Positions 956 through 15,916 of a stretch of 64,000 nucleotides of DNA are shown piece by piece. The notes under the pieces are model-generated. The model saw only the letters and a program-made list of their open reading frames with translations. It had not been told where the DNA came from and searched no databases. How positions within the stretch are numbered: the first letter of the stretch is position 1; each line of letters opens with the position of its first letter. This DNA is from Ruminococcus sp. Its GTDB lineage: Bacteria > Bacillota > Clostridia > Oscillospirales > Ruminococcaceae. The DNA lies in the NCBI GenBank assembly GCA_031262105.1, contig JAISIH010000083.1:3219-67218 (forward strand), written 5' to 3'. A program made the position numbers and the translations under genes.

Positions 956-1588
956 ATGAACTTAATTCTTTTAGGCGCACCGGGTGCGGGCAAGGGTACA
1001 CAGGCAGAGAATATCGAAAAGGCGAAAGGAATTCCGCAGATTTCGACGGGGAATATCCTTAAAGCGGCTGTAAAAAACGGAACGGAGATTGGTCTTAAGG
1101 CTAAGTCCTATATGGACGCGGGCGGACTTGTTCCCGATGATGTTGTAATCGGTATCTTGAAGGCGAGAATTAACGAGCGGGATTGCAGAGAGGGATTTAT
1201 CCTTGACGGTTTCCCGAGGACTGTGCCTCAGGCTGATGCACTCGAAGCCATGGGAATTACGATTGACAAGGTTATCTCGATTGAAGTGCCGGACGAAAAA
1301 ATCGCGGCGAGACTTGCAGGGCGGAGAGCTTGCCCGGCGTGCGGGGCAACCTACCACACCGAATACAAGCCGTCGGCGGTTCCCGGTATCTGCGACAAGT
1401 GCGGCGGCGAACTTATAATCCGCTCCGACGACAAGCCCGAGACGGTGCTTGACCGCCTTAAAACCTACCACGAAAAGACAGCCCCCCTCATCGACTACTA
1501 CTCCGCAAAGGGCAAACTTGTTACGGTTGAGGGGCAAGACGAAGTGGCAGACACAACCGCTCTCGTAATGAAGGCACTTGAAGAATGA
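956..1588 (+). CDS. adk: Adenylate kinase
   Basis: P-loop at the N-terminus (MNLILLGAPGAGKGTQ). Zinc-lid cysteines CPACG...CDKCG. Position after secY. Confidence 0.95.
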   Translation: MNLILLGAPGAGKGTQAENIEKAKGIPQISTGNILKAAVKNGTEIGLKAKSYMDAGGLVPDDVVIGILKARINERDCREGFILDGFPRTVPQADALEAMGITIDKVISIEVPDEKIAARLAGRRACPACGATYHTEYKPSAVPGICDKCGGELIIRSDDKPETVLDRLKTYHEKTAPLIDYYSAKGKLVTVEGQDEVADTTALVMKALEE

Positions 1589-1667
1589 GCGGGGACGCCC
1601 CCGCGGGCGATTAAGACGTAAAACAAAACCGACATAAACATAAGATTTGTAGAACGAAGTGTGTTAA

Positions 1668-2423
1668 GTGATACCCATCAAGACCAAAAACGAAATTGAG
1701 AAGATGCGTATTGCGGGGGAAATTGCCGCAAATGCTCTCCACACCGCCGGAAAAGCGATAAAGCCTGGTGTCTCGACATATGAACTTGATATGATTATCA
1801 GGCGATACATCGAAACACACGGCGCAAAGGCAAGTTTCTACAAATACGAGGGCTTCCCGGGCTATTCCTGCATCTCCGTTGGGAGTAAGGTTATCCACGG
1901 TATACCCTCGAAAAAAGAGCGGCTTCGCGACGGCGATATTGTTTCAATCGACGTCGGTGCTTATAAAGACGGCTTCCACGGTGACACAGCATATACCTTC
2001 GCCTGCGGGAAAGTCGCTCCCGAAACTGCAAAGCTTCTCGAAGAGACGAACAAAGCCCTTTACCTTGCCATCGAAGCCGCCCGTATCGGCAACCGCCTCG
2101 GCGATATCGGCTCGGCAGTCGAAAACCACTGCAAACGCTGCGGATTTTCGGTTGTCCGCGATTATGTCGGGCATGGGGTCGGGCGTGACCTTCACGAATC
2201 CCCCGAAATCCCGAATTTCGGCAACCCCGGACGCGGGCTTCGTATTACCAAGGGAATGACCCTCGCTCTCGAGCCGATGGTTAACCTCAAGGGCGAAGAA
2301 ATCCGCACCCTCCACGACAACTGGACCGTCGTTACCGCTTCCGGTTCCCCTTCCGCACACTTTGAACACACGGTTGTTATTACAGAGGACGGGGCAGAGA
2401 TTTTAACGCTCCCGACGGTGTAG
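1668..2423 (+). CDS. map: Type I methionine aminopeptidase
   Basis: Full-length match to the MAP pattern (IKTKNEIEKMR, HGIPS, DVGA..DGFHGD, GHGVG, EPM). Conserved position after adk. Confidence 0.95.
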   Translation: MIPIKTKNEIEKMRIAGEIAANALHTAGKAIKPGVSTYELDMIIRRYIETHGAKASFYKYEGFPGYSCISVGSKVIHGIPSKKERLRDGDIVSIDVGAYKDGFHGDTAYTFACGKVAPETAKLLEETNKALYLAIEAARIGNRLGDIGSAVENHCKRCGFSVVRDYVGHGVGRDLHESPEIPNFGNPGRGLRITKGMTLALEPMVNLKGEEIRTLHDNWTVVTASGSPSAHFEHTVVITEDGAEILTLPTV

Positions 2424-2426
2424 ATT

Positions 2427-2663
2427 ATGGAAGATGGGACGATTGTTATATCCCTTGCGGGGCGGGATAAGGGCAAGAAAATGGCGGTGGTCGGCGGCGG
2501 CGACGGGTTTGTGCTTGTTGCTGACGGGAAAGAGCGGCGGCTTTATACTCCAAAGCGCAAGAACCTTAAACACGTTAAAGCAACGCATGAAAGAATCGAC
2601 ATCATGGGCTTGACAGACAAAGCTTTAAGAAGACTTTTCACAAGCGAGGAAAAAAATGGCTAA
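2427..2663 (+). CDS. KOW-domain RNA-binding protein (small L14E/L6E-like protein common between map and infA in Clostridia)
   Basis: 78-aa ORF with a KOW-like segment ([19 protein letters not shown]). Translationally coupled to infA. Confidence 0.7.
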
Positions 2664-2874
2664 AGATGATGTTATTGAAGTACAGGGCATAATAACCGAC
2701 TGTCTCCCGAACACGCTGTTTAAGATTAAACTCGATAACGGTCACGAAATCATGGGACACCTGTCAGGCAAACTCCGCCAGCACTTCATAAGAATAGTCG
2801 AAGGCGACAGAGTTACTTGTGAAATGTCGCCCTACGATCTATCAAAAGGACGCATTACATGGCGTTCCAAGTGA
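2656..2874 (+). CDS. infA: Translation initiation factor IF-1
   Basis: 72 aa. S1-like IF-1 sequence ([11 protein letters not shown]...[13 protein letters not shown]). Confidence 0.95.
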
Positions 2875-2901
2875 GTACCCTATATAGGAGGTTTTAGCAC
2901 A

Positions 2902-3015
2902 ATGAAAGTACGTCCTTCAGTTAAGAAGATGTGTGACAAATGCAAAGTCATAAAACGTCACGGCAAAATCATGGTTATCTGCGAAAACCCGAAACACAAA
3001 CAAAGACAAGGCTAA
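2902..3015 (+). CDS. rpmJ: 50S ribosomal protein L36
   Basis: Not in the ORF track because it is too short. I translated it by hand: [46 protein letters not shown] lies upstream. Confidence 0.9.
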
Positions 3016-3044
3016 TACTATTTAGTCGGAGGTGAATATTAAAA

Positions 3045-3413
3045 ATGGCAAGAATCGCCGGTGTTGACCTTCCCAAGGCAAAGCGCATTGAGTACGGTCT
3101 AACTTATATCTATGGCATAGGCGTGAGTTCGTCACGGAAGATTTTAGCGGCTGCGGGAGTTTCGCCCGATACCCGCGTTAAGGACCTTTCCGAAGATGAA
3201 GTCGGCAAAATCAGAGCAGAGATTGACAAGGATTATACCGTTGAGGGCGACCTTAAACGTGAAGTCCAGCTCAATATCAAGAGGCTTGTTGAGATAGGCT
3301 GTTATCGCGGAATCCGCCACAGAAGGGGTCTCCCCGTTCGCGGACAACGCACAAAAACAAATGCACGTACCCGTAAAGGTCCGGCTAAGACTATCGCTAA
3401 CAAGAAGAAGTAA
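3045..3413 (+). CDS. rpsM: 30S ribosomal protein S13
   Basis: [10 protein letters not shown] start, an [25 protein letters not shown] segment near the C-terminus, and operon position. Confidence 0.95.
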
Positions 3414-5568: not shown

Positions 5569-5922
5569 ATGAAAATTTTGGCTGGCTCAAGGAAATTAGG
5601 GAGAGCTACCGATGCGAGAAAAGCTATGCTTCGCGCAATGGTAACCTACCTTTTAGAATACGGCAAGATTGAAACAACCGTTACTCGCGCCAAGGAAGTA
5701 CGTTCCATGACCGAGATTATGATAACTAAGGCGAAGGCAGGCGACCTTCACGCAAGACGTCAAGTCCTCGCGTACGTTACAAAAGAAGATGTCGTTAAAA
5801 AGCTTTTTGAGGAAATCGCTCCCTCATATAAAGAGCGAAACGGCGGTTACACACGGATTTATAAGATAGGTCCGAGACGCGGCGACGCTGCGGAGATGGC
5901 TATTATTGAATTAGTGAAGTAA
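5569..5922 (+). CDS. rplQ: 50S ribosomal protein L17
   Basis: L17 pattern ([18 protein letters not shown]...GGYTRI). The start is set at ATG 5569, after a GGGGG RBS. The longer track ORF overlaps rpoA. Confidence 0.9.
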
Positions 5923-5935
5923 TAGAAAATATAAC

Positions 5936-5976
5936 CATATACACGGTGTTTCTGTATCGGGAACATCGTGTATATG
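5936..5976 (+). terminator. Hairpin terminator after rplQ
   Basis: 15-bp stem (catatacacggtgtt / aacatcgtgtatatg, one G.U pair) with an 11-nt loop, 14 nt after the rplQ stop. Confidence 0.55.
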
Positions 5977-6183
5977 TATTATCTGTTGATAAATAATTAT
6001 GAAATTAAGTTCATTTATTAAACATTGTGTAAATTTTAAAGTTTGTATAACAATTTACTTGTATTTGTTCATATAATATGTTATAATTGATTAAACTAAT
6101 AAAATAAATTAAATGTTTTTTTTGTGTTGCCAAAATTGTAATTTTATAGTTCAAGGATTTGTAATGACGAAAAGAGGAAAAAC

Positions 6184-6369
6184 GTGTTAATCGAAAAGAA
6201 AAATTGCTTAAACGAGGAAGCTCGTAATTACAACCACAAACCTGTTGAAGTTACAACCGGTTTTAGTGAGCTTACTTTTATATATCCTGATGATGAAGAA
6301 ATTATTCCTGACGAGGAAAGATTTATATTTCCCATAGACAAGGTCTTCTCAAGCGGTTATCCTATTTAA
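6184..6369 (+). CDS. Hypothetical small acidic protein (61 aa) in the low-GC island
   Basis: GTG start preceded by AAGAGGAAAAA. A/T-rich codon usage like the following gene. I recognise no motif. Confidence 0.35.
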   Translation: MLIEKKNCLNEEARNYNHKPVEVTTGFSELTFIYPDDEEIIPDEERFIFPIDKVFSSGYPI

Positions 6370-6382
6370 AAAATCATACACC

Positions 6383-6423
6383 CAAACAACGGTTGAAGAA
6401 CAATGTTAGTCAACCGTTGTTTG
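6383..6423 (+). terminator. 14-bp perfect hairpin between the small ORF and the 797-aa gene (possible attenuator or terminator)
   Basis: caaacaacggttga / tcaaccgttgtttg with a 13-nt loop. There is no clean U-tract. Confidence 0.4.
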
Positions 6424-6449
6424 TATTACTATATTAAGGACAGTATCAA

Positions 6450-8843
6450 ATGCCGAATGATCCGATTGGATATAAATTGACCTTCTGTAAAAAGCTCTCA
6501 GCGCTTGATAACCCTGTACCCGGTGTGGCATTTGAATATCTAACATTGGCGCACTTCGATGGGATTTTTATAAATGAAATAAAGTGCGTTAGTGATTATA
6601 AAAAGACGTGTTCGGACATCCTACAAGATGGAATAAAGTGGGGCGACCTAACAGCCGACAAACAGAATAAGTTAAATTTTCTTGCGCATTGCGAAAAACA
6701 GGTCGTAAATATCATAACAGAAAACGTCAATAATGATGTGTTAAGTAATCACGATATGCCGATTATGGTGGTCACACTTTTAAATTTCAGTGATGAAAAC
6801 AATTGCAGAAGCCAAAAAATAAATAGTATAAAGAATGCTCTCCAGAATTATATCGGAAATTTAAGTGTCGATTTTGGGGTTTATATGCCGCTGTCTATAG
6901 AGGATTTAGCAATTGTTTTTAAATCCTATACTCTTGAAAGTATTTTAAAGCTTATTACTAATCTAAGAAATCACAAATGTTTTGCTGACGTTATGAATAT
7001 GTATTCCGTAATTTCTTTAGACACAAATTCTGATAAACCCGCTCAGATCGAGGAAATTAACACTTATATAAAGATTCAGGCGGTTCCCCCGACAAGTTTT
7101 CGCGAAATAGCAGATAATTTACCTTCGGTTACGCCGATTGGTGAAGAACGTAATTATAATGACACTAAAGTTGCGGTCGGAAAATATGATATGTATCATA
7201 GAATATCCATAAAAAACACAATGAACTATTATTTTAATTTATACAGAAATATTCTTGATACAAATTCATGCATTTCAAAAAAGTTAGGCGTGTTATCCAC
7301 AGAAACTATAGTAATTAAACCGCTTAACGAGAGCGGTGAAAAAAATCATTTTACCAACCAATTTGCATTTAGCGGAAATATCAATAAACAAAAAAGTTGG
7401 AATGAATGGTATAGACGATTCGAAGAATGTTGGAATAAAGAGTGGGACAAAGGTAATAAAAGTGAAACTAAGAAAAAATATAAAGAATGGTTCCCTACTC
7501 TTTATAAATTTTCTGGTATGCTTAGTGGTCGTGCTCATCGTATATCACACGCTGTTTCTTCTTATAAGTATTTCGAACCATTTTGGGAATTTATTTCTGA
7601 AATAACGAAATTTATTCCGGAATTTATAAAGAGTGAATCAAAAAGAGAAAACTATAATCGCAGCGTTCTAACTGTAAGTGATGAAATCAGATCATTGATT
7701 ACCGGAATTGACGATGTCTTTTCGACGTCTTTCCATGATTTTGAGCAATCGCAAAAAGATGGGTTATGCGTTCACTCTGCCGGAAAGCTTATGGTTGCAT
7801 ATCGGAATTTTGCTGAATTTTTAGGTAATCAATTATTATCTGTTATAGGTCACGACGGTAGACACATTTATTTTTCAATTGTTTCAGCAATAACAGAGAC
7901 CACAAAAATAAACAGATATGACATTAAAGAGAATAAAACGAATAATACATTCTTAACAATACATATGCCGTTTTCAAATATTTACGATTTTCGTGCGGCG
8001 ATTTTTAAGATTTGCCATGAAATTGGGCATTTAATATACGTCACTGATGCTGAAAAAAGCAGATTCAAGGATATATGTAATGAAGGATTAGAGATAGAGA
8101 GTATTAGATTCAGTAATCCCAAAATAGTACATCAACTTAATAAAATACTTGATGAATTTTACGAGGAATTCGCTGCTGATTACTATGCAATTAAAATATT
8201 AGGGCTTGATGTTCTTTATAGTGATCCAAAGCACGATAAAGATGCTGTTTTGAATCAAATTCAAGAAATATTCATGACTGAACTTAATGATAAACAACGA
8301 GCCGGCGTTAACCTTCGATTCCAAGGTATTCGTTTACTCTTACGCCTTCAACCAATGCTAATAAGGGACAAAAAACATGATTTAAACTTAGACAGTTTAA
8401 TAGCTTGGGCGTATCAACCATCTGATGTAATACAAGAACTACTTAATTCCGTAGCCGAAAATGTTATCCCGGTAATTGGGCAGGTAGGTAGCGCCTCTGT
8501 TATTGTTAAAGAAGCAGTAAAATATGCAACTGACGTTAAAAATGTAGAAGAGTTTATTTACCTCAATACGAATATTAGTGAAAAGATTTTTTCTCCGGCA
8601 GCTCTTTACATTTTAAGGCAAAATGAAGATGTAAAATTAATAAATGACATATATACGATCTTAAATAAAAATAAAAAAGAAAATTCAGAATTTCCTTTTC
8701 AAAATCAAATTAACTTTTTCAAAAGCTATAGGGAGCATTTCTTTGATTATAGAAGCGGGAGCTCTTCATATCGAGATGATGTTGTTCCATTTCGAGATTT
8801 TTTGTTAGCCTTTACCGAGCGCAGAAAATACATAGAACTATGA
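6450..8843 (+). CDS. Large (797 aa) hypothetical protein with an HExxH zinc-metallopeptidase-like module (ImmA/IrrE, M78-like), encoded on a low-GC island
   Basis: Long uninterrupted ORF in strongly A/T-rich DNA. HEIGH lies at nt 8016..8030, and EEFAADYYA at nt 8163..8189 about 49 aa later, resembling the HExxH...ExxANxFA signature. No signal peptide or TM segment is evident. Confidence 0.7.
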   Translation: MPNDPIGYKLTFCKKLSALDNPVPGVAFEYLTLAHFDGIFINEIKCVSDYKKTCSDILQDGIKWGDLTADKQNKLNFLAHCEKQVVNIITENVNNDVLSNHDMPIMVVTLLNFSDENNCRSQKINSIKNALQNYIGNLSVDFGVYMPLSIEDLAIVFKSYTLESILKLITNLRNHKCFADVMNMYSVISLDTNSDKPAQIEEINTYIKIQAVPPTSFREIADNLPSVTPIGEERNYNDTKVAVGKYDMYHRISIKNTMNYYFNLYRNILDTNSCISKKLGVLSTETIVIKPLNESGEKNHFTNQFAFSGNINKQKSWNEWYRRFEECWNKEWDKGNKSETKKKYKEWFPTLYKFSGMLSGRAHRISHAVSSYKYFEPFWEFISEITKFIPEFIKSESKRENYNRSVLTVSDEIRSLITGIDDVFSTSFHDFEQSQKDGLCVHSAGKLMVAYRNFAEFLGNQLLSVIGHDGRHIYFSIVSAITETTKINRYDIKENKTNNTFLTIHMPFSNIYDFRAAIFKICHEIGHLIYVTDAEKSRFKDICNEGLEIESIRFSNPKIVHQLNKILDEFYEEFAADYYAIKILGLDVLYSDPKHDKDAVLNQIQEIFMTELNDKQRAGVNLRFQGIRLLLRLQPMLIRDKKHDLNLDSLIAWAYQPSDVIQELLNSVAENVIPVIGQVGSASVIVKEAVKYATDVKNVEEFIYLNTNISEKIFSPAALYILRQNEDVKLINDIYTILNKNKKENSEFPFQNQINFFKSYREHFFDYRSGSSSYRDDVVPFRDFLLAFTERRKYIEL

Positions 8844-8846
8844 AAA

Positions 8847-8872
8847 AAGAGGCATGGTTAGATATGCCTCTT
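8847..8872. terminator. Bidirectional intrinsic terminator shared by the 797-aa gene (+) and the purH-like gene (-)
   Basis: aagaggcat / atgcctctt 9-bp stem, flanked by an A-run on the left and a T-run on the right. Confidence 0.7.
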
Positions 8873-8919
8873 TTGTTTTATTTTGTTGTTACCTTACTCG
8901 CGGTGTTCCACATGGAACA

Positions 8920-10113
8920 TTAATGATGAAATAATCTTATCCCCGTAAACGCCATAGCCATGTTATATTTGTTACAGGTTTCGATAACGTTGTCGTCGCG
9001 GATTGAGCCGCCGGGTTCTGCAATGTATTTCACGCCGGAGCGATAGGCGCGTTCGATGTTGTCGCCGAAGGGGAAGAACGCGTCGGAGCCGAGGGCGACG
9101 TCTGTGTTTGTTTTAAGCCATGCTTTTTTTGCTTCGCGTGTGAATTCTGCCGGCTTTACCTTGAAGATGTTCTGCCAAACGCCGTCGGCGAGGACTTCGT
9201 CGGAGTCGTCGGAGATGTAGACGTCGATTGCGTTGTCGCGGTCGGGGCGGCGGATATTGTCCGCAAACTGCAGCCCGAGGACTTCGGGGGACTGCCGCAG
9301 ATACCAGTTATCGGCTTTTTGCCCGGCGAGGCGGGTGCAGTGGATTCGAGACTGCTGACCGGCGCCGATTCCGATTGCCTGACCGTCTTTTACGTAGCAG
9401 ACGGAGTTCGACTGCGTGTATTTTAGGGTTATCAGCGAGATTATAAGATCCTCTAATTTGTCGGCGGGGATATTCTTGTTTTCGGTTACGATATTTTGGA
9501 GCAAATCGGCGTTGATTTTAAGTTCGTTTCTGCCCTGTTCAAAGGTTACGCCGAAGACATCTTTTGTTTCAATCGGCGCGGGAACATAGCTTTCGTCGAT
9601 TTTTACTATGCAATACGTGCCTTTGCGCTTGCTTTTTAGGATTTCGAGAGCCTTTTGGCTGTAGCCCGGGGCGATTATGCCATCCGAAACCTCGACCTGA
9701 ATTAGCTTTGCTGTCGATTCGTCGCACTCGTCCGAGAGGGCGATAAAGTCGCCGTAAGATGACATTCTGTCCGCGCCTCTTGCCCTTGCATATGCGCAAG
9801 CTAAGGGGCTTAGTTCCCCGTCACCTGTGAAATAAATCTTACGGAGCGTGTCTGACAGGGGTCTGCCGACCGCTGCGCCGGCGGGGGAGACGTGCTTGAA
9901 GCTTGTCGCGGCGGGTAAGCCTGTCGCCGCCTTAAGTTCGCGGACAAGCTGCCAGCCATTGAACGCGTCGAGCAGATTTATATAGCCGGGCTTGCCGCAG
10001 AGTACCTCTATGGGGAGGGGGGCGGTGTTTGCGGGGGTTGCGTTCGCGTTTGCGGTTTTGACGTAGACTGACGCGGGTTTCTGATTAGGGTTACAGCCGT
10101 ATTTTAGTTCCAT
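8920..10113 (-). CDS. purH: AICAR formyltransferase (PurH C-terminal-domain-only type)
   Basis: 397 aa. Ends with the canonical GSDAFFPFGDNIE...PGGSIRDDNVI...AMAFTGIRLFHH. It lacks the N-terminal MGS/IMP-cyclohydrolase domain. Confidence 0.85.
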   Translation of the reverse strand: MELKYGCNPNQKPASVYVKTANANATPANTAPLPIEVLCGKPGYINLLDAFNGWQLVRELKAATGLPAATSFKHVSPAGAAVGRPLSDTLRKIYFTGDGELSPLACAYARARGADRMSSYGDFIALSDECDESTAKLIQVEVSDGIIAPGYSQKALEILKSKRKGTYCIVKIDESYVPAPIETKDVFGVTFEQGRNELKINADLLQNIVTENKNIPADKLEDLIISLITLKYTQSNSVCYVKDGQAIGIGAGQQSRIHCTRLAGQKADNWYLRQSPEVLGLQFADNIRRPDRDNAIDVYISDDSDEVLADGVWQNIFKVKPAEFTREAKKAWLKTNTDVALGSDAFFPFGDNIERAYRSGVKYIAEPGGSIRDDNVIETCNKYNMAMAFTGIRLFHH

Positions 10114-10121
10114 TTTTGCAC

Positions 10122-10829
10122 CTACACATTTTTATTTACGATCTTGTCTTGGTATGTTCCTGTCGCAATGTCAATATACCTTACAAAAAGGGAGATTTTA
10201 TTCGCTTCGTTTAGGTTATCCCACAAGCCCTGTGTAAATTCGCCGATGTCGTCGGGGATAGAAATTGCCGTCGGTTCGCCGGAGAAAACCTCAGGCGGGT
10301 TTCCGTCGCACTTATATGTATGGATAAAATGCCCGGTTCCCGCTACTGCCGGCTTGTATGTAAATAAGAAGCGATTGCAGGATTCGGGGTTGCCGCTTGC
10401 AGATTTTAGGATTGAGAGGGCATAGTTAAAATTATTATTCGTTAGCCTTATAATCCCGGAAATTCGCGGGGTATAGATCGGGGGGTCGGGTTCAAATTCC
10501 CGGCATTGTAAGCTTTCTTCAAAGGTTTTTTGAGCGTCGAGCCCGTTATAGATTGTGTCGGTCTGGTCGCCGTTCGTGACTATGGTCTTGTTCCCCAAAA
10601 CGCGAACGGCGTTATAGATTACAAGGCTCGGGTCGGACATCTTCGACGGGTCGAAAGCCTCTGTGCGTATGCCGTCGGCGGTTTTTACGAAGATTCTGTT
10701 GCGGCTGTTTTCACTCCTACCCATGATGAAATAGGCGGTTACAGCGTGCTTGCCGTCAGGGGTTGCTCCTATAATTATACCACGCCCGGGATAGCTATTA
10801 TTTGCAAGTAATTCTTTTATATCCTTCAT
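10122..10829 (-). CDS. IMP cyclohydrolase, PurO-like (archaeal type)
   Basis: About 235 aa, immediately upstream of the formyltransferase-only purH. N-terminal YPGRGIIIG-type sequence. The start is set at MKDIKEL (10829), so it does not overlap peptide gene P1. Confidence 0.7.
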   Translation of the reverse strand: MKDIKELLANNSYPGRGIIIGATPDGKHAVTAYFIMGRSENSRNRIFVKTADGIRTEAFDPSKMSDPSLVIYNAVRVLGNKTIVTNGDQTDTIYNGLDAQKTFEESLQCREFEPDPPIYTPRISGIIRLTNNNFNYALSILKSASGNPESCNRFLFTYKPAVAGTGHFIHTYKCDGNPPEVFSGEPTAISIPDDIGEFTQGLWDNLNEANKISLFVRYIDIATGTYQDKIVNKNV

Positions 10830-10845
10830 TTTTACCTTCTTTAAT

Positions 10846-11145
10846 TTACCAAGCCGCTTGATTCTGGCAGAAGAGTTCCTTTGTTTCCTCATCGAACACA
10901 CTCTTCATGCAAAGGCGGCATAGGCGGTTTTTATTATTAATGTTTGCCGCGTCGAAGTATTCGCAGGTTTCTGCTTTTTCGTTCGGGACGAGTTTATATT
11001 TGGGACCGTTGCAAAAAAGCCCGCCGCCCGTAACCGCGAGGTTTTCAAGCTCTTCGTCCGAAAGGGTTATGTATTTATCCGCCTGTTCGTCTGTAATTTC
11101 TATGCCGCGTTCACGCGCTTTCGCGATTAGTTCATCCTTTTTCAT
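10846..11145 (-). CDS. Array member P1: long-leader double-glycine Cys-rich precursor peptide (99 aa)
   Basis: Leader MKKDELIAKARERGIEITDEQADKYITLSDEELENLAVTGG. The core has C, CEYF, CRLC and C, and ends QAAW. Own GGAGG RBS. Confidence 0.8.
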   Translation of the reverse strand: MKKDELIAKARERGIEITDEQADKYITLSDEELENLAVTGGGLFCNGPKYKLVPNEKAETCEYFDAANINNKNRLCRLCMKSVFDEETKELFCQNQAAW

Positions 11146-12556: not shown

Positions 12557-12835
12557 TTAAAAAGTTCTTAACTGCGGGTCATGCTCCCAGCCTTTTTCTG
12601 CGCAGGTATGCACCCCGGACACATCTTTAATGTTCGGGCAATTTGTGCAGGTTGAAGTCTTCCAAAACTTCGCTTCGGTTATGCCTTGCGAACACTTTTC
12701 AAGGCAATAATCAGGACCTCCGCCGGCGATGTTTTCAAGCTCTTCGTCCGAGAGGTTTAGGTATTTCTCTGCCTCTGTCTCAGTCAGGGTTATTCCGCGA
12801 GCGGCGGCTTTTTTTATCAGGTCTTCTTTCGTCAT
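12557..12835 (-). CDS. Array member P6 (92 aa)
   Basis: Leader MTKEDLIKKAAARGITLTETEAEKYLNLSDEELENIAGGG. Core: CLEKC...CTNC...C. Confidence 0.8.
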   Translation of the reverse strand: MTKEDLIKKAAARGITLTETEAEKYLNLSDEELENIAGGGPDYCLEKCSQGITEAKFWKTSTCTNCPNIKDVSGVHTCAEKGWEHDPQLRTF

Positions 12836-12850
12836 GATTTCCCTCCGCGC

Positions 12851-13072
12851 TTATACATTTTTTGTACAATGATAGGTAGTGGCTTTGCCGAAACAACCTG
12901 CGGCTTCTACGTAAATGTAGGTGCAGTTATCGCACAGACGTTCGCTGGTCCCCGGCTTCGGCTCGAAGTATTTGCAGTTCTCCGCGATGTCGAATTTAAC
13001 TACAACCCTGTTTGCCCCCGCAGATATGTTTTCAAGTTCTTCATCGGAAAGGTTAATGTTTTCTTTTTTCAT
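12851..13072 (-). CDS. Array member P7: truncated leader (73 aa)
   Basis: MKKENINLSDEELENISAGA lacks the N-terminal helix and has Ala-Gly-Ala (ISAGA) instead of GG at the predicted site. Core: CKYF...CDNC...C...C. The start is set at 13072 to avoid overlap with P8. Confidence 0.7.
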   Translation of the reverse strand: MKKENINLSDEELENISAGANRVVVKFDIAENCKYFEPKPGTSERLCDNCTYIYVEAAGCFGKATTYHCTKNV

Positions 13073-13085
13073 AGTCAAAACCTCA

Positions 13086-13385
13086 CTAATTCCAAGCTTC
13101 TTCAAGGGTACACCAAAGGCTTGAGAGTGTTTCGGAGTCTATCCTTGCGTGGGAGCAATTGCCGCAAATTTGGACAGATCTCTTCGGATCGAAGACACTG
13201 TAGTAACGGCAAGTAAGTGCCTTGTTCCCGTCCGTTATTTCTTTTTTGAAACCGCAGAAGCCTCCGCCCGCTATGTCGAGGTTTTCGAGTTCCTCATCGG
13301 AGAGGTTAACGTACTTCTCCGCCTGTTCCTCGGTTAAGGCTACGCCCTGTTCTGCGGCTTTTTTTATAAGGTCGGACTTTTTCAT
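13086..13385 (-). CDS. Array member P8 (99 aa)
   Basis: Leader MKKSDLIKKAAEQGVALTEEQAEKYVNLSDEELENLDIAGGG. Core: C...CRYY...CGNC...C, ending EEAWN. Confidence 0.8.
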   Translation of the reverse strand: MKKSDLIKKAAEQGVALTEEQAEKYVNLSDEELENLDIAGGGFCGFKKEITDGNKALTCRYYSVFDPKRSVQICGNCSHARIDSETLSSLWCTLEEAWN

Positions 13386-13421
13386 AGCAAACCTCCTTTT
13401 AGTTAACCGGTGCTGTCCGGG

Positions 13422-13715
13422 TTATGCCCTGTAAGTTTTTATGACTGTCATCATCTGATCGCAATGCACAACGGTTGATATCGGTCTGCCGAGGCTATCG
13501 CAGGCACCATAATAGGGAACCTTTATCATCTTTTCCCCGCAGATTTCGCAAATAATATCCATATAAGGTTCAGTGCAAATATCATCCACAAGTCCGCCGC
13601 CGCCCACAATGTTCTCAAGCTCTTCTTCCGAAAGGTTTATGTACTTCTCCGCCTGTTCGTCGGTGAGGGTAATTCCGCGCTCACGCGCCTTTTTTATAAG
13701 GTCTTCTTTTTTCAT
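13422..13715 (-). CDS. Array member P9 (97 aa)
   Basis: Leader MKKEDLIKKARERGITLTDEQAEKYINLSEEELENIVGGGG. Core: C...CEIC...C...C. Confidence 0.8.
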   Translation of the reverse strand: MKKEDLIKKARERGITLTDEQAEKYINLSEEELENIVGGGGLVDDICTEPYMDIICEICGEKMIKVPYYGACDSLGRPISTVVHCDQMMTVIKTYRA

Positions 13716-13729
13716 GGTTTACCCTCCTG

Positions 13730-13957
13730 TTAATTCCACGCTTCTGCGCAGGTGCAATAAAGGCTGCTCGAGGTTCGTTTTACCTTTTTACAGCGGTCGC
13801 ACTGCTTATAATTTCTTTCTATGTCGGTTTCGTAGTAACTGCATTTTTCCGCTTCATAGCCCATGACATACTTATTAAATTTAACCGCCCCGCCCGAAAC
13901 GGTTAAGTTTTCAAGCTCCTCTTCCGATACAGCCGGTTTTTGTGCTTCTTTTTCCAT
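13730..13957 (-). CDS. Array member P10: second leader class (75 aa)
   Basis: Leader MEKEAQKPAVSEEELENLTVSGG. Core: CSYY...CDRC...CTCAEAWN. Confidence 0.75.
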   Translation of the reverse strand: MEKEAQKPAVSEEELENLTVSGGAVKFNKYVMGYEAEKCSYYETDIERNYKQCDRCKKVKRTSSSLYCTCAEAWN

Positions 13958-13978
13958 AAGTTTACCTCCGATAAAATA

Positions 13979-14272
13979 TTACACATTCCGTGCGAATAAA
14001 ACCATTCTGTTAACTTCGGTATTTGAGCAGAAAATCTGCCCGGTTTCATAATTACCGTAGTAGTCGCACGACCAGCAGTTTTGCTTCACGCCCGGCGTCG
14101 GATTTGCCCCGTGCCACTTGCCGCATATCATTCCGGCAGTATCGGCGTTGTTTATCAAGACAAACGAATCGTCGTACACCATCTCTCCGAATGCAGGAGA
14201 GCTCCCTGCGCCGCCGGCAACTGCGTCAAGCTCTTCTTCCGATACAGCCGGCTTTTGCACTTCTTTTTCCAT
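13979..14272 (-). CDS. Array member P11: second leader class (97 aa)
   Basis: Leader MEKEVQKPAVSEEELDAVAGG. Core: C...CWSC...C. The start is set at ATG 14272 (GGGAGGG RBS), 20 nt after the purN stop. The track ORF extends into purN. Confidence 0.7.
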   Translation of the reverse strand: MEKEVQKPAVSEEELDAVAGGAGSSPAFGEMVYDDSFVLINNADTAGMICGKWHGANPTPGVKQNCWSCDYYGNYETGQIFCSNTEVNRMVLFARNV

Positions 14273-14292
14273 GGTTTTACCCTCCCGTATTT

Positions 14293-14871
14293 CTATAACT
14301 TCGCACAAAGTTTTTCTACCGCTTCCGGCAGGATGACCCATTCTGCCTCTTCCATGACGCGTCTCTGTAACGTCTCGGGGGTGTCATTGTCCCTTACCTC
14401 GACCGCCTTTTGTGCCAGAATCGGTCCGCCGTCACATTCGGGCGTTACAATATGCACTGTCGCGCCGGTTATCTTTACGCCGCGTTTTAAGGCTTCTTCA
14501 TGCACCTTTAAGCCGTAATATCCGACGCCGCAAAAACTCGGGATTAACGCCGGGTGGACATTAACTATCCGCCCCTTGAAAACCGCGCAAAAGCTGTCGT
14601 CGAGGACTGTCATAAACCCCGCGAGGACTATTACGTCGATATCCTGCTCCAAAAAAAGCTGTATAAGTTCTTCGGAATAACTTTTGCTGTCGGGGAAATT
14701 CTTGCGCGGGAGGGTTAACGTCTTAATCCCGGCGTTCTCGGCGCGGGTTAAGGCAAAAGCCCCCTCCTTGCTCGAAACAACAAGAACAATCTCGCCGCTT
14801 TTTAGCTTATAGTCAATGAGTGCCTGTAAATTCGTTCCCCCGCCCGAGACCAAGACCGCTATTCTTTTCAT
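14293..14871 (-). CDS. purN: Phosphoribosylglycinamide formyltransferase
   Basis: MKRIAVLVSGGGTNLQALID start, NVHPALIP motif, position after purM. Confidence 0.9.
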   Translation of the reverse strand: MKRIAVLVSGGGTNLQALIDYKLKSGEIVLVVSSKEGAFALTRAENAGIKTLTLPRKNFPDSKSYSEELIQLFLEQDIDVIVLAGFMTVLDDSFCAVFKGRIVNVHPALIPSFCGVGYYGLKVHEEALKRGVKITGATVHIVTPECDGGPILAQKAVEVRDNDTPETLQRRVMEEAEWVILPEAVEKLCAKL

Positions 14872-14875
14872 AATC

Positions 14876-15916
14876 CTAAAGCCCGTTCACAACGATTTTT
14901 TCATCGCCGGTCGAGATTTCGCCCAAGACATAGCTTTCCTCGCCCGCCGCATTAAGGGTTGCAATAGCCCGCTCTGCATCTTCCGGCGCGGTAACAATTA
15001 CCATTCCCACGCCCATATTGAACGTGTTATACATATCGCGGATGGGTATCTTGCCCGTTTCCATAATCAGGTCGAAAATCGGGAGCGTTTTAACGTTCGC
15101 AATATCAATATTCGCGCAAAGCCCGTCTTTTATCGCACGGGGAATGTTCTCGAAAAAGCCGCCGCCGGTTATATTGGCGATGCCTTTAACGTTAACCTTC
15201 GAGATAAGCTCTAAAATCGGTTTAACGTAAATTTTCGTCGGGACCAAAAGCGCGTCGCCCAAGTTCTGCCCGATTTCGGAATAGTGGCGCGAGATGTTCT
15301 GGTGGTTAAGCGCGAAGACCTTCCGTACCAGCGAAAAGCCGTTTGAATGAAGCCCGGAAGACCGCACGGCAATTAAAACGTCGCCGGCTTTTTGCCCCTC
15401 GGTCGAGATTATCTTTTTCTTATCGACAATCCCGACAGCGAAACCGGCGATGTCGTATTCGTCCTCGGGATAAAAATCCGGCATCTCCGCCGTCTCCCCT
15501 CCGACGAGGGCGCATCCCGCCTGAACACAGCCGTCCGCAACGCCCTTCACAATCTGTTCAATCCGCAGCGGAATATTCTTCCCGCAGGCGATATAATCGA
15601 GGAAGAAAAGCGGTTTCGCTCCCGCGCAGATTATGTCATTAACACACATGGCAACCGCGTCAATCCCGATTGTGTTATGGCGGTCGGTTAAGAACGCCGC
15701 CTTGAGTTTTGTCCCCACGCCGTCGGTCCCCGAAACGAGGACAGGTTCTTCCATCCCGGCGAAATCCGGCGCGAAAAGCCCGCCGAAGCCGCCGATGTCC
15801 GTCAAAACCCCGGGAACGCGCGTTCTTGCGACGTGTTTTTTTATAAGTTCGGTCGATTCATACCCGGCGGTAATGTCCACGCCGGCTTCTTTATAACTAT
15901 CTGAAAAGCTGTACAT
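14876..15916 (-). CDS. purM: Phosphoribosylformylglycinamidine cyclo-ligase (AIR synthetase)
   Basis: YKEAGVDI, GIGGFGGLF-type and DGVGTK motifs; 346 aa. Confidence 0.95.
   Translation of the reverse strand: MYSFSDSYKEAGVDITAGYESTELIKKHVARTRVPGVLTDIGGFGGLFAPDFAGMEEPVLVSGTDGVGTKLKAAFLTDRHNTIGIDAVAMCVNDIICAGAKPLFFLDYIACGKNIPLRIEQIVKGVADGCVQAGCALVGGETAEMPDFYPEDEYDIAGFAVGIVDKKKIISTEGQKAGDVLIAVRSSGLHSNGFSLVRKVFALNHQNISRHYSEIGQNLGDALLVPTKIYVKPILELISKVNVKGIANITGGGFFENIPRAIKDGLCANIDIANVKTLPIFDLIMETGKIPIRDMYNTFNMGVGMVIVTAPEDAERAIATLNAAGEESYVLGEISTGDEKIVVNGL

Follow-up and report, generated by a model that had tools for sequence, protein, structure and literature searches.

Several described systems offer points of comparison for a low-GC island that lies between rplQ and purH in Ruminococcus sp. 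(NCBI GenBank assembly GCA_031262105.1, contig JAISIH010000083.1, positions 3,219 to 67,218 of the forward strand; this stretch of 64,000 nucleotides was analysed as a whole and is referred to below as the window, with coordinates counted from its first letter). The island carries two open reading frames (ORFs), one for a small protein of 61 amino acids (aa) and one for a large protein of 797 aa with an HExxH motif. Low GC content is a long-noted trait of the lactococcal abortive infection (abi) genes, and Lit is a U49 zincin that cleaves EF-Tu. With Lit and the single-gene, atypically low-GC lactococcal Abi systems the island shares the character of low-GC accessory genes, a zincin motif, Abi and restriction-modification neighbours and a hypervariable distribution; it differs from them in its domain architecture and in the conserved small upstream ORF and hairpin, and no sequence relationship to any PADLOC model was detected. 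Type II toxin-antitoxin operons likewise place a small upstream gene before a larger effector in one transcription unit, are mobile, low in GC and scattered, and AbiE and HepT/MNT pairs occur among the neighbours of the family described here; in the present case, however, the “toxin” would be of ~800 aa, a terminator-like hairpin stands between the genes, and the small protein has no recognisable DNA-binding domain. The ImmA/IrrE peptidases (family M78), including CapP of the CBASS-associated CapP/CapH pair, are cytoplasmic HExxH zincins with a downstream E-x-x-A-[D/N]-x-[F/Y]-A helix and are often tied to mobile elements and immune operons, but they measure ~150-250 aa, whereas the 797-aa protein carries a ~470-aa N-terminal extension, and the spacing from motif to motif in the present family runs from about 45 to more than 100 aa. 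The M48 and M56 gluzincins (HtpX, Ste24 and the BlaR1 sensor proteases) have in common with it HExxH and the third-ligand motif ExxAD (ExxCD in M56, which the EAFCD of one remote relative resembles); they are membrane proteins, whereas the family protein is soluble and without a Pfam match.

Low-GC accessory cargo with a protease effector in slots of the defence type is known as a general kind. The protein family, the combination of domains and the order of small ORF, hairpin and large gene found here were absent from all libraries searched. The island is confirmed as accessory and, judged from composition, position and gene phylogeny, is a ~2.9-kb two-gene unit that is horizontally exchanged and moves between chromosomal sites. 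It may well be a new protease-based anti-phage cassette of the abortive-infection or toxin-antitoxin-like kind, a reading that rests on association and that we hold with moderate confidence.

A low-GC two-gene island between rplQ and purH

The GC content of 0.43-0.51 in rpoA and rplQ gives way to 0.28-0.36 from about 5800 to 8900, climbs again from about 8900 and reaches 0.47-0.58 in purH. The island (5923-8919) has a GC of 0.323 against 0.482 for the whole window, and the 797-aa ORF within it (GC 0.330; GC at third codon positions 0.285) is the 9th lowest in GC of the 870 ORFs of at least 250 aa in the genome (mean 0.484, standard deviation 0.042), ~3.7 standard deviations under the mean. The original prediction, made from the letters of the window, had described a switch to A/T-rich DNA after the rplQ terminator with a reversal at purH, and had called the islet compositionally foreign; the GC track and the genome-wide rank of the ORF bear this out, and a sample of 60 relatives, with four genomes of the same genus that are 66-93% complete among them, yielded no copy of the large gene.

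The borders of the island are sharp on both sides. On the left stands rplQ (5569..5922, + strand; ribosomal protein L17, Pfam Ribosomal_L17, E 2.6e-41), which closes the rpoA-rplQ operon and is the slot's conserved flank on this side. In an alignment of four junctions, DNA similarity to relatives is lost after the rplQ stop codon, just upstream of an intrinsic terminator (5936..5976, +) with a 19-pair stem and a T-rich tail. The right border of the cassette is a bidirectional intrinsic terminator (8845..8874), whose 12-pair stem is preceded by an A-run and followed by a T-run; it serves the large gene on the + strand and purH on the - strand. The purH gene (8920..10113, -), of the purH-type AICAR formyltransferase class (Pfam AICARFT_IMPCHas, E 1.2e-57), forms the conserved right flank, and its product has 84-94% aa identity to PurH of same-genus genomes. 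Neither direct nor inverted repeats, nor an integrase or transposase, were found bounding the cassette in the window. Duplicated hairpin half-sites flanking the island were considered and rejected, as the common 7-mers CGGTGTT and GGAACAT occur at chance level (362 of 500 shuffles).

Transcription of the cassette would start in an AT-rich leader (5977..6183, +; GC about 0.22). In direct reading, an extended -10 element, TGTTATAAT, is seen ahead of the small ORF at 6079-6087, with a -35-like TTGTAT at 6059-6064; its promoter function is putative, and it would leave the small ORF with a 5′ untranslated region of ~95 nucleotides (nt). The word TGTTATAA upstream of the small ORF recurs in two further loci of the family (L001 and L019), and ahead of the small ORFs no common word that might be an operator or promoter exceeds the shuffled expectation. 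Rfam matches over 5800-9000 were at chance level only, and leader and hairpin correspond to no known RNA element. The small ORF (6184..6369, +) has a GTG start preceded by the Shine-Dalgarno site AGAGGA and encodes an acidic protein (pI 4.4) that is a putative partner of the large protein and has no family match in Pfam, NCBIfam, PADLOC or PHROGs. It is followed by a stem-loop (6383..6423, +) with a perfect 14-bp stem, CAAACAACGGTTGA at 6383-6396 and TCAACCGTTGTTTG at 6410-6423, and then by the large gene (6450..8843, +), an order of acidic ORF, hairpin and 797-aa ORF that had been read correctly from the outset. The 80-nt spacer between the two ORFs folds at -22 kcal/mol (RNAfold).

This layout recurs throughout the family. 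In all nine loci with upstream sequence (the window, L001, L003, L014, L016, L017, L019, L021 and L099), a same-strand ORF of 60-90 aa ends 80-153 nt before the large gene, whereas shuffling gives such an ORF by chance at 0.9-4.1% per locus. A comparable stem of 9-17 bp is present at the same position in all eight loci that were folded, with a T-run after most, and the hairpins of the window and L001 have the stem sequence AACGGTTGA/TCAACCGTT in common. The cassette is therefore not the orphan, single-gene module first proposed. The small ORFs of L016, L017 and L019 share the motif GV[ST]xNAGVLPGASCGI, those of L021 and L099 the motif G[VI]T[YF]DAVVLxNASCG; across subclades, alignment is limited to a weak G-[VIFY]-[TS] core. 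Synonymous codon differences among the small ORFs of L016, L017, L019 and L021 show that these ORFs are coding and translated. Between hairpin and large-gene start there is no room for a separate promoter (26 nt in the window), so that the large gene would be expressed by read-through, below the level of the small ORF; the hairpin is probably a partial terminator or attenuator that holds it there. As to the small protein, one may guess at an antitoxin, an inhibitor or a substrate of the large protein. In L001 (~915-935) and L016 (~9975-9995) alike, the start of the large gene is closely preceded by the 14-nt sequence ACAAGTGTAAGAGG, Shine-Dalgarno site included; the large proteins of these two loci are only about 24% identical, and the common sequence could be due to chance or be a conserved translational element.

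Homologs of the large gene occupy the same rplQ-purH junction in two metagenome contigs, L001 and L003. In G001, a genome of the same genus (contig G001:C10, locus L007), the slot holds a 335-aa RelA_SpoT protein (405-1412, +) that matches the PADLOC candidate PDC-S33 at E 1.3e-104, a protein of nucleotide pyrophosphokinase fold unrelated to the large protein; its presence there identifies the slot as a place where defence cargo is exchanged. An MCP gene (1462-3150, -) comes after the RelA_SpoT gene in G001, and the same MCP adjoins purH in L003, where a GT8 glycosyltransferase gene follows the large-gene copy. In two further genomes, a ferritin-like gene lies beyond purH (G002) or rplQ and purH are not adjacent (G004). 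Had the gene been present at this position throughout the clade and shared the codon usage of the host, the picture would differ from the one obtained, with copies at the junction in two metagenome contigs, none in the 60 relatives and low GC everywhere.

Among the window, L001 and L003, aa identity is 93-100% for RplQ (92-93% between the window copy and those of L001 and L003) and 87-97% for PurH, but only 40-45% for the large proteins. The flanks are 77-95% identical at the nucleotide level, which indicates related species, and the idea that L001, L003 and G001 are strains of one species was rejected because their flanks reach only 83-95% nucleotide identity. Because the flanks are too divergent for strains, the argument for exchange rests on the incongruence of trees and not on the contrast in identity alone: the gene tree joins the window with L001 (support 100/98), and the approximately unbiased (AU) test rejects the clade of L001 and L003 that the flanks lead one to expect (p=0.00145). 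This conflict between gene tree and flanks indicates that the history of the cassette differs from that of its surroundings. The large gene has a GC of 0.32-0.36 in all ten loci, on contigs of 0.39-0.50, and the island around a remote relative in genome G384 has a GC of 0.26-0.35 in a contig of 0.55-0.60. A second landing site, independent of the first and again right behind the terminator of a ribosomal-protein operon, is seen in L099 (2101-5194), where a distant 923-aa member with its own 60-aa upstream ORF is inserted between rplL and the start of rpoB.

The large protein family and its predicted domains

The large protein (92 kDa, pI 6.2) is soluble. It had been described as lacking a signal peptide, and the hydropathy profile concurs, with no hydrophobic N-terminus or membrane segment (maximum Kyte-Doolittle score over 19 residues 1.46). 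Searches of Pfam, NCBIfam, PADLOC and PHROGs gave no match, the family libraries returned nothing consistent for the 15 aligned members, and a profile of the family had no match among PDB sequences at E<=10. The protein is the founder of an unannotated family of ~800-aa proteins. Whereas a word-indexed search of 5.8 billion clusters returned three relatives (31-41% identity), and an alignment-based word search yielded fewer matches than the single-sequence search, an exhaustive phmmer search of 1.84 billion representatives recovered 19 proteins at E<=1e-3, mostly of 790-925 aa. The ten distant members that were checked are each a singleton cluster on one contig, and the three of them with NCBI records are called “hypothetical protein” and belong to metagenome-assembled genomes (MAGs) of Oscillospiraceae or Clostridia. 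No relatives were found in GTDB species representatives and IMG/VR by a back-translated pattern scan, or by tblastn in 50,697 phage and 72,556 plasmid records. When 400 genomes from the taxonomic family of the host were searched with a profile, one weak match emerged, the remote 739-aa relative in G384, which hhalign places with the family at 94.6% probability over 443 colinear columns, from the N-terminal domain through an aligned HExxH (HEVFH), with EAFCD downstream.

The 15 members share only 19-45% identity, and the residues invariant among them are G7, K14, F36, N87, G244, T286, R361, K373, D430, F431, H523, E524, G526, H527, A576, D577 and R623. Two members of half length, P0006 (464 aa) and P0015 (411 aa), one N-terminal and the other C-terminal and both on contigs of about 37-38 kb, may be two pieces of one frameshifted or pseudogenised copy. 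Structure was predicted with two AlphaFold models, the first from 6 sequences (pLDDT 50) and the second from 11 sequences (pLDDT 62, pTM 0.56).

The N-terminal domain (aa 1 to about 290; 6450..7319, +), with conserved G7, K14, F36-D37-G38, H80, Q84, N87, E151, G244, D247 and T286, is predicted to consist of tandem ferredoxin-like alpha+beta repeats and is a putative sensor or regulatory domain. Its pLDDT rises to 83-86 in parts. In Foldseek searches of the PDB with both models, of low to moderate confidence, the top 30 or more matches were chlorite dismutase, coproheme decarboxylase (HemQ) and DyP (target TM-score 0.49-0.58 over 220-240 columns with full target coverage, E 3e-3 to 1e-1). A tandem ferredoxin-like barrel may accordingly be drawn with low confidence from these models, as similarity at the level of the fold only. 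Two predicted repeats forming a barrel, reproducible from two models, would be the likeness to the CDE superfamily to which these proteins belong; the differences are the lack of sequence similarity, an E-value of 3e-3 at best, the fusion to a predicted protease in the present family and the haem ligand, since no His is conserved in the second ferredoxin repeat, where the (near-)invariant residues of aa 180-290 are N183, P213, G244, D247, L264 and T286.

The middle of the protein (aa about 317-465) is modelled as helical. It contains the strongest motif of the core family, SFRDFExSQKD, which reads SFHDFEQSQKD in the window protein (aa 427-437; 7728..7760, +), with D430, F431, E432, Q435 and D437 as invariant columns in alignments A1 and A4. 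The motif falls in a loop that joins two long helices and is poorly modelled. Its region is the only stretch that can be aligned at the DNA level between L001 and L003, and the motif is not retained in the remote G384 relative.

The zincin-like metallopeptidase domain (aa about 470-632; 7857..8345, +) is laid out as three beta-strands, a helix with HEIGH (aa 523-527, nt 8016-8030) and a helix with EEFAAD (aa 572-577, nt 8163-8180). Both motifs had been noticed in the initial reading and proved real and conserved: H523, E524, G526, H527, A576 and D577 are invariant among the 15 members, and E573 is conserved in at least 90%. Such strong constraint on HExGH...ExxAD argues for a catalytically active zincin. 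The two models agree on strands at 472-507 and helices at 514-526 (HEIGH), 533-549 and 557-584 (E573), with a local pLDDT of about 66-83, and although both are of low overall confidence their order of elements fits a zincin. BFVD gave nothing significant, the weak named matches being M34-like, IrrE and SprT peptidases; the Foldseek lists were dominated by matches to the N-terminal domain. The best reading of motifs and models is that the large protein is a predicted zincin-type metallopeptidase. Its C-terminal tail (aa about 635-797; 8352..8840, +) is variable, all-helical and poorly conserved, with gaps in alignment A1 and a pLDDT of 31-50 over most of its length.

The more specific assignment to ImmA/IrrE that had been suggested for the window protein was not supported. 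PF06114 has no match at E<=1 in this protein or in any of the 15 members, whereas the same model picks up true M78 genes in 19 of 26 related genomes, one such gene lying at another place in the present genome. The signature HExxH followed by the helix E-x-x-A-N-x-F-A is represented by HEIGH and E573-F-A-A576-D577-Y-Y-A, with D in place of the N of M78; the motif is found in M48 as well. For profile comparison, an M78 alignment was built from 25 genuine PF06114 genes of related genomes and alignments of control families were built likewise. With hhalign, the family scored 59-60% against M78, with 16-19 confident columns around HExGH, 47-51% against M48, via the ExxAD helix, 39-46% against M3 and 2-3% against M56; the known families scored 90% (M78-M48), 87% (M78-M56), 73% (M78-M3) and 96.5% (M48-M56) against each other. 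As the value for M78 lies below these cross-family controls, the family is generically zincin-like and not demonstrably M78. It carries the HExxH...ExxA[D/N] signature of the M48/M56/M78 group, and membership in M78 itself is not supported.

Defence neighbourhoods and competing explanations

The proposal that the cassette takes part in defence draws on the genes found beside its relatives. In L016, an AbiH gene and two type II methyltransferase genes (PADLOC E 2e-105 and 9e-115) lie immediately upstream of the member, and an agr-type quorum-sensing set (LytTR response regulator, histidine kinase, a 64-aa ORF and AgrB; 12691-15671) lies directly downstream. In L017, an AbiEii pair (E 4e-9) is located 0.5 kb downstream and a PDC-S04 gene (Fic, E 8e-84) 6 kb away. 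The G384 relative has on one side a dGTPase fragment (2e-14) with an rve integrase, on the other a PDC-S15 FRG protein (4e-27); this locus (L103, G384:C150, 5800-12216) is a ~6.5-kb low-GC island reaching the contig end, with an rve integrase fragment, a C-terminal dGTPase fragment, the 739-aa relative, the PDC-S15 FRG protein and a 156-aa ORF. In L015, a distant member is located directly upstream of a phage Minor_capsid_1 gene. Repeated defence neighbours, variable occupancy of the slot and atypical composition, the marks of defence cargo, are thus present in this small sample. The original suggestion of a defence or abortive-infection module fits these contexts, while its single-gene form was wrong and the PADLOC search of members returned no match.

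As an anti-phage cassette, the island might work as follows. The C-terminal half of the large protein would be an active zinc metallopeptidase in which H523 and H527 bind zinc, E524 acts as catalytic base and E573 is the third ligand, and the tandem ferredoxin-like barrel and helical middle would form a sensor or autoinhibitory module. The small protein would be made in excess, the hairpin passing only part of transcription, and, as an inhibitor (antitoxin) or pseudo-substrate, would bind the protease. Either an infection cue or, when host expression is shut off, the disappearance of a labile small protein would free the protease, and cleavage of essential host or phage proteins would then abort the infection. 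It is tempting to go further and to suppose an unrecognised immune family in which the Cld/DyP-like barrel senses the cue (a small molecule, haem or redox state, or a phage protein) and frees the fused zincin from the small protein, resulting in abortive infection, with the cassette kept permanently at low GC and shuffled among terminator-proximal slots by highly expressed ribosomal operons; this extended version is possible but distinctly tentative.

Several observations weigh against a role in defence, or against parts of the argument for it. PADLOC-DB v2 gave no match for the two proteins of the window, six other members or the G384 relative. About half of the loci (L001, L003, L019, L021 and L099) are housekeeping contexts, and the association with defence genes comes from four to five loci. 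The small ORF is barely conserved across subclades, the pI of its product lying anywhere between 4.2 and 10.7, and neither an upstream small ORF nor a hairpin accompanies the remote relative in G384. A precursor gene, a leaky terminator and an enzyme gene are also the classic operon layout of ribosomally synthesised and post-translationally modified peptides (RiPPs). The peptidase reading itself combines motifs with the order of secondary-structure elements, the models being of low confidence and the fold search giving no significant zincin match. Part of the divergence of the large proteins could, moreover, stem from relaxed constraint rather than from exchange.

Of the other explanations, an accessory pair with no connection to phage survives best, though we consider it unlikely. 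It would act in regulated proteolysis governed by a small-molecule or haem/redox signal received through the Cld/DyP-like barrel, or be a selfish addiction module without benefit to the host. The N-terminal domain does resemble only the haem-binding CDE superfamily and ACT/RAM-like ligand-binding folds, the contexts are metabolic or housekeeping in about half of the cases, and the family seems limited to MAGs of Oscillospiraceae and Clostridia, which could reflect a niche-specific function. However, the second ferredoxin repeat is without an invariant His where Cld, HemQ and DyP ligate haem, and what is seen here, namely hypervariability, tree incongruence, persistent low GC, the sharing of a slot with PDC-S33 and repeated Abi, restriction-modification, dGTPase and PDC neighbours, is typical of defence cargo.

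A pair for peptide maturation, in which the small ORF encodes a RiPP-like precursor made in excess and the large protein is a cytoplasmic processing or modifying enzyme combining a recognition domain with a zincin leader peptidase, seems more improbable still. The order of strong promoter, small ORF, leaky hairpin and large gene, which is kept in all loci, agrees with the way structural gene and terminator are arranged in many peptide operons. A conserved Cys-containing core, NAGVLPGASCGI or DAVVLxNASCG, is found in small ORFs, and L016 adjoins a peptide quorum-sensing set. Yet no exporter, immunity gene or further modification enzyme accompanies the pair in any of the ten loci, the conserved part of the small protein is central and not an N-terminal leader, the small ORFs of the window clade lack the Cys motif, the remote relative lacks the small ORF altogether, and the neighbours that recur are defence genes and not transporters.

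A derepressor of the M78 type, in which a sensor protease would cleave a cognate repressor and so activate a mobile element, a stress regulon or a defence regulon, in the manner of CapP/CapH and ImmA/ImmR, carries little probability. The HExGH...ExxA[D/N]xFA of the family resembles the HExxH...ExEANxFA of M78, both motifs and the preceding strand fall in register with M78 under relaxed hhalign settings, M78 scored highest of the four zincin families tried, and one BFVD match is an “IrrE protein” (target TM-score 0.51, not significant). Against this stand the silence of PF06114 and the hhalign value of 60%, lower than the 73% that M78 and M3 give each other as separate zincin families. In addition, Pfam reveals no helix-turn-helix (HTH/XRE) repressor partner in the small ORFs of the window, L001 and L003, whose sequences are not HTH-like, no integrase, conjugation or prophage genes accompany the window copy, and the protein is ~4 times the usual size of ImmA. 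Finally, a phage or prophage gene, as a remnant or stranded moron that serves the phage in superinfection exclusion or counter-defence, is very improbable, since the position of the L015 member beside a capsid gene and the fit of low GC and mosaic distribution to a phage origin are set against the lack of relatives in the IMG/VR contigs and the phage and plasmid records, the lack of phage genes beside the copies in the window, L001, L003, L016, L017, L019, L021 and L099, and the enclosure of the window cassette by two terminators with no att-like repeats.

Other low-GC cargo and significance of the family

Further observations concern the surroundings of the slot and the rest of the genome (G000). 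In the right flank (8920-10901), PurH comprises the AICAR formyltransferase part only, with a Pfam match to positions 78-311 of the bienzyme model, and is followed by a separate PurO-type IMP cyclohydrolase (PF07826). HepT/MNT toxin-antitoxin genes (PF01934 and NTP_transf_2) are found inside the purine operon, between purM and purF, as two pairs in L001 (6996-8298) and one pair in L003 (10317-10990); this lineage seems tolerant of repeated cargo insertion into its pur operon. The long ORF of lowest GC in the genome (C29:24765-25656, +; 297 aa, GC 0.28) matches PADLOC PDC-S15 at E 1.6e-32; low GC thus marks defence-type cargo in this genome. Another low-GC ORF of 369 aa (C72:8344-9451, -) starts with an AbiH-like GNGFDL motif and has no PADLOC match, and a 795-aa ORF of GC 0.32 (C33:84773-87158, +), with N-terminal membrane segments, is unrelated to the 797-aa protein.

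The predicted combination of a Cld/DyP-like barrel, a zincin protease and a small partner protein has, to our knowledge, not been described before. The rplQ-purH junction is a natural example of a chromosomal exchange slot right after a ribosomal-protein operon terminator, filled by different alleles or by PDC-S33 in related species, and the low GC that the family maintains in hosts of differing composition raises the question of its cause, for which a shared pool of mobile genes, silencing and selection for weak expression are candidates. With 19 proteins among about 15 billion, all from uncultured Oscillospiraceae and Clostridia to date, the family is tiny, and its practical reach is narrow for now. 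On present evidence of association, the cassette is a good candidate for experimental test. Should it protect against phages, it would add a family of defence systems that current catalogues, including PADLOC and Pfam, have missed.

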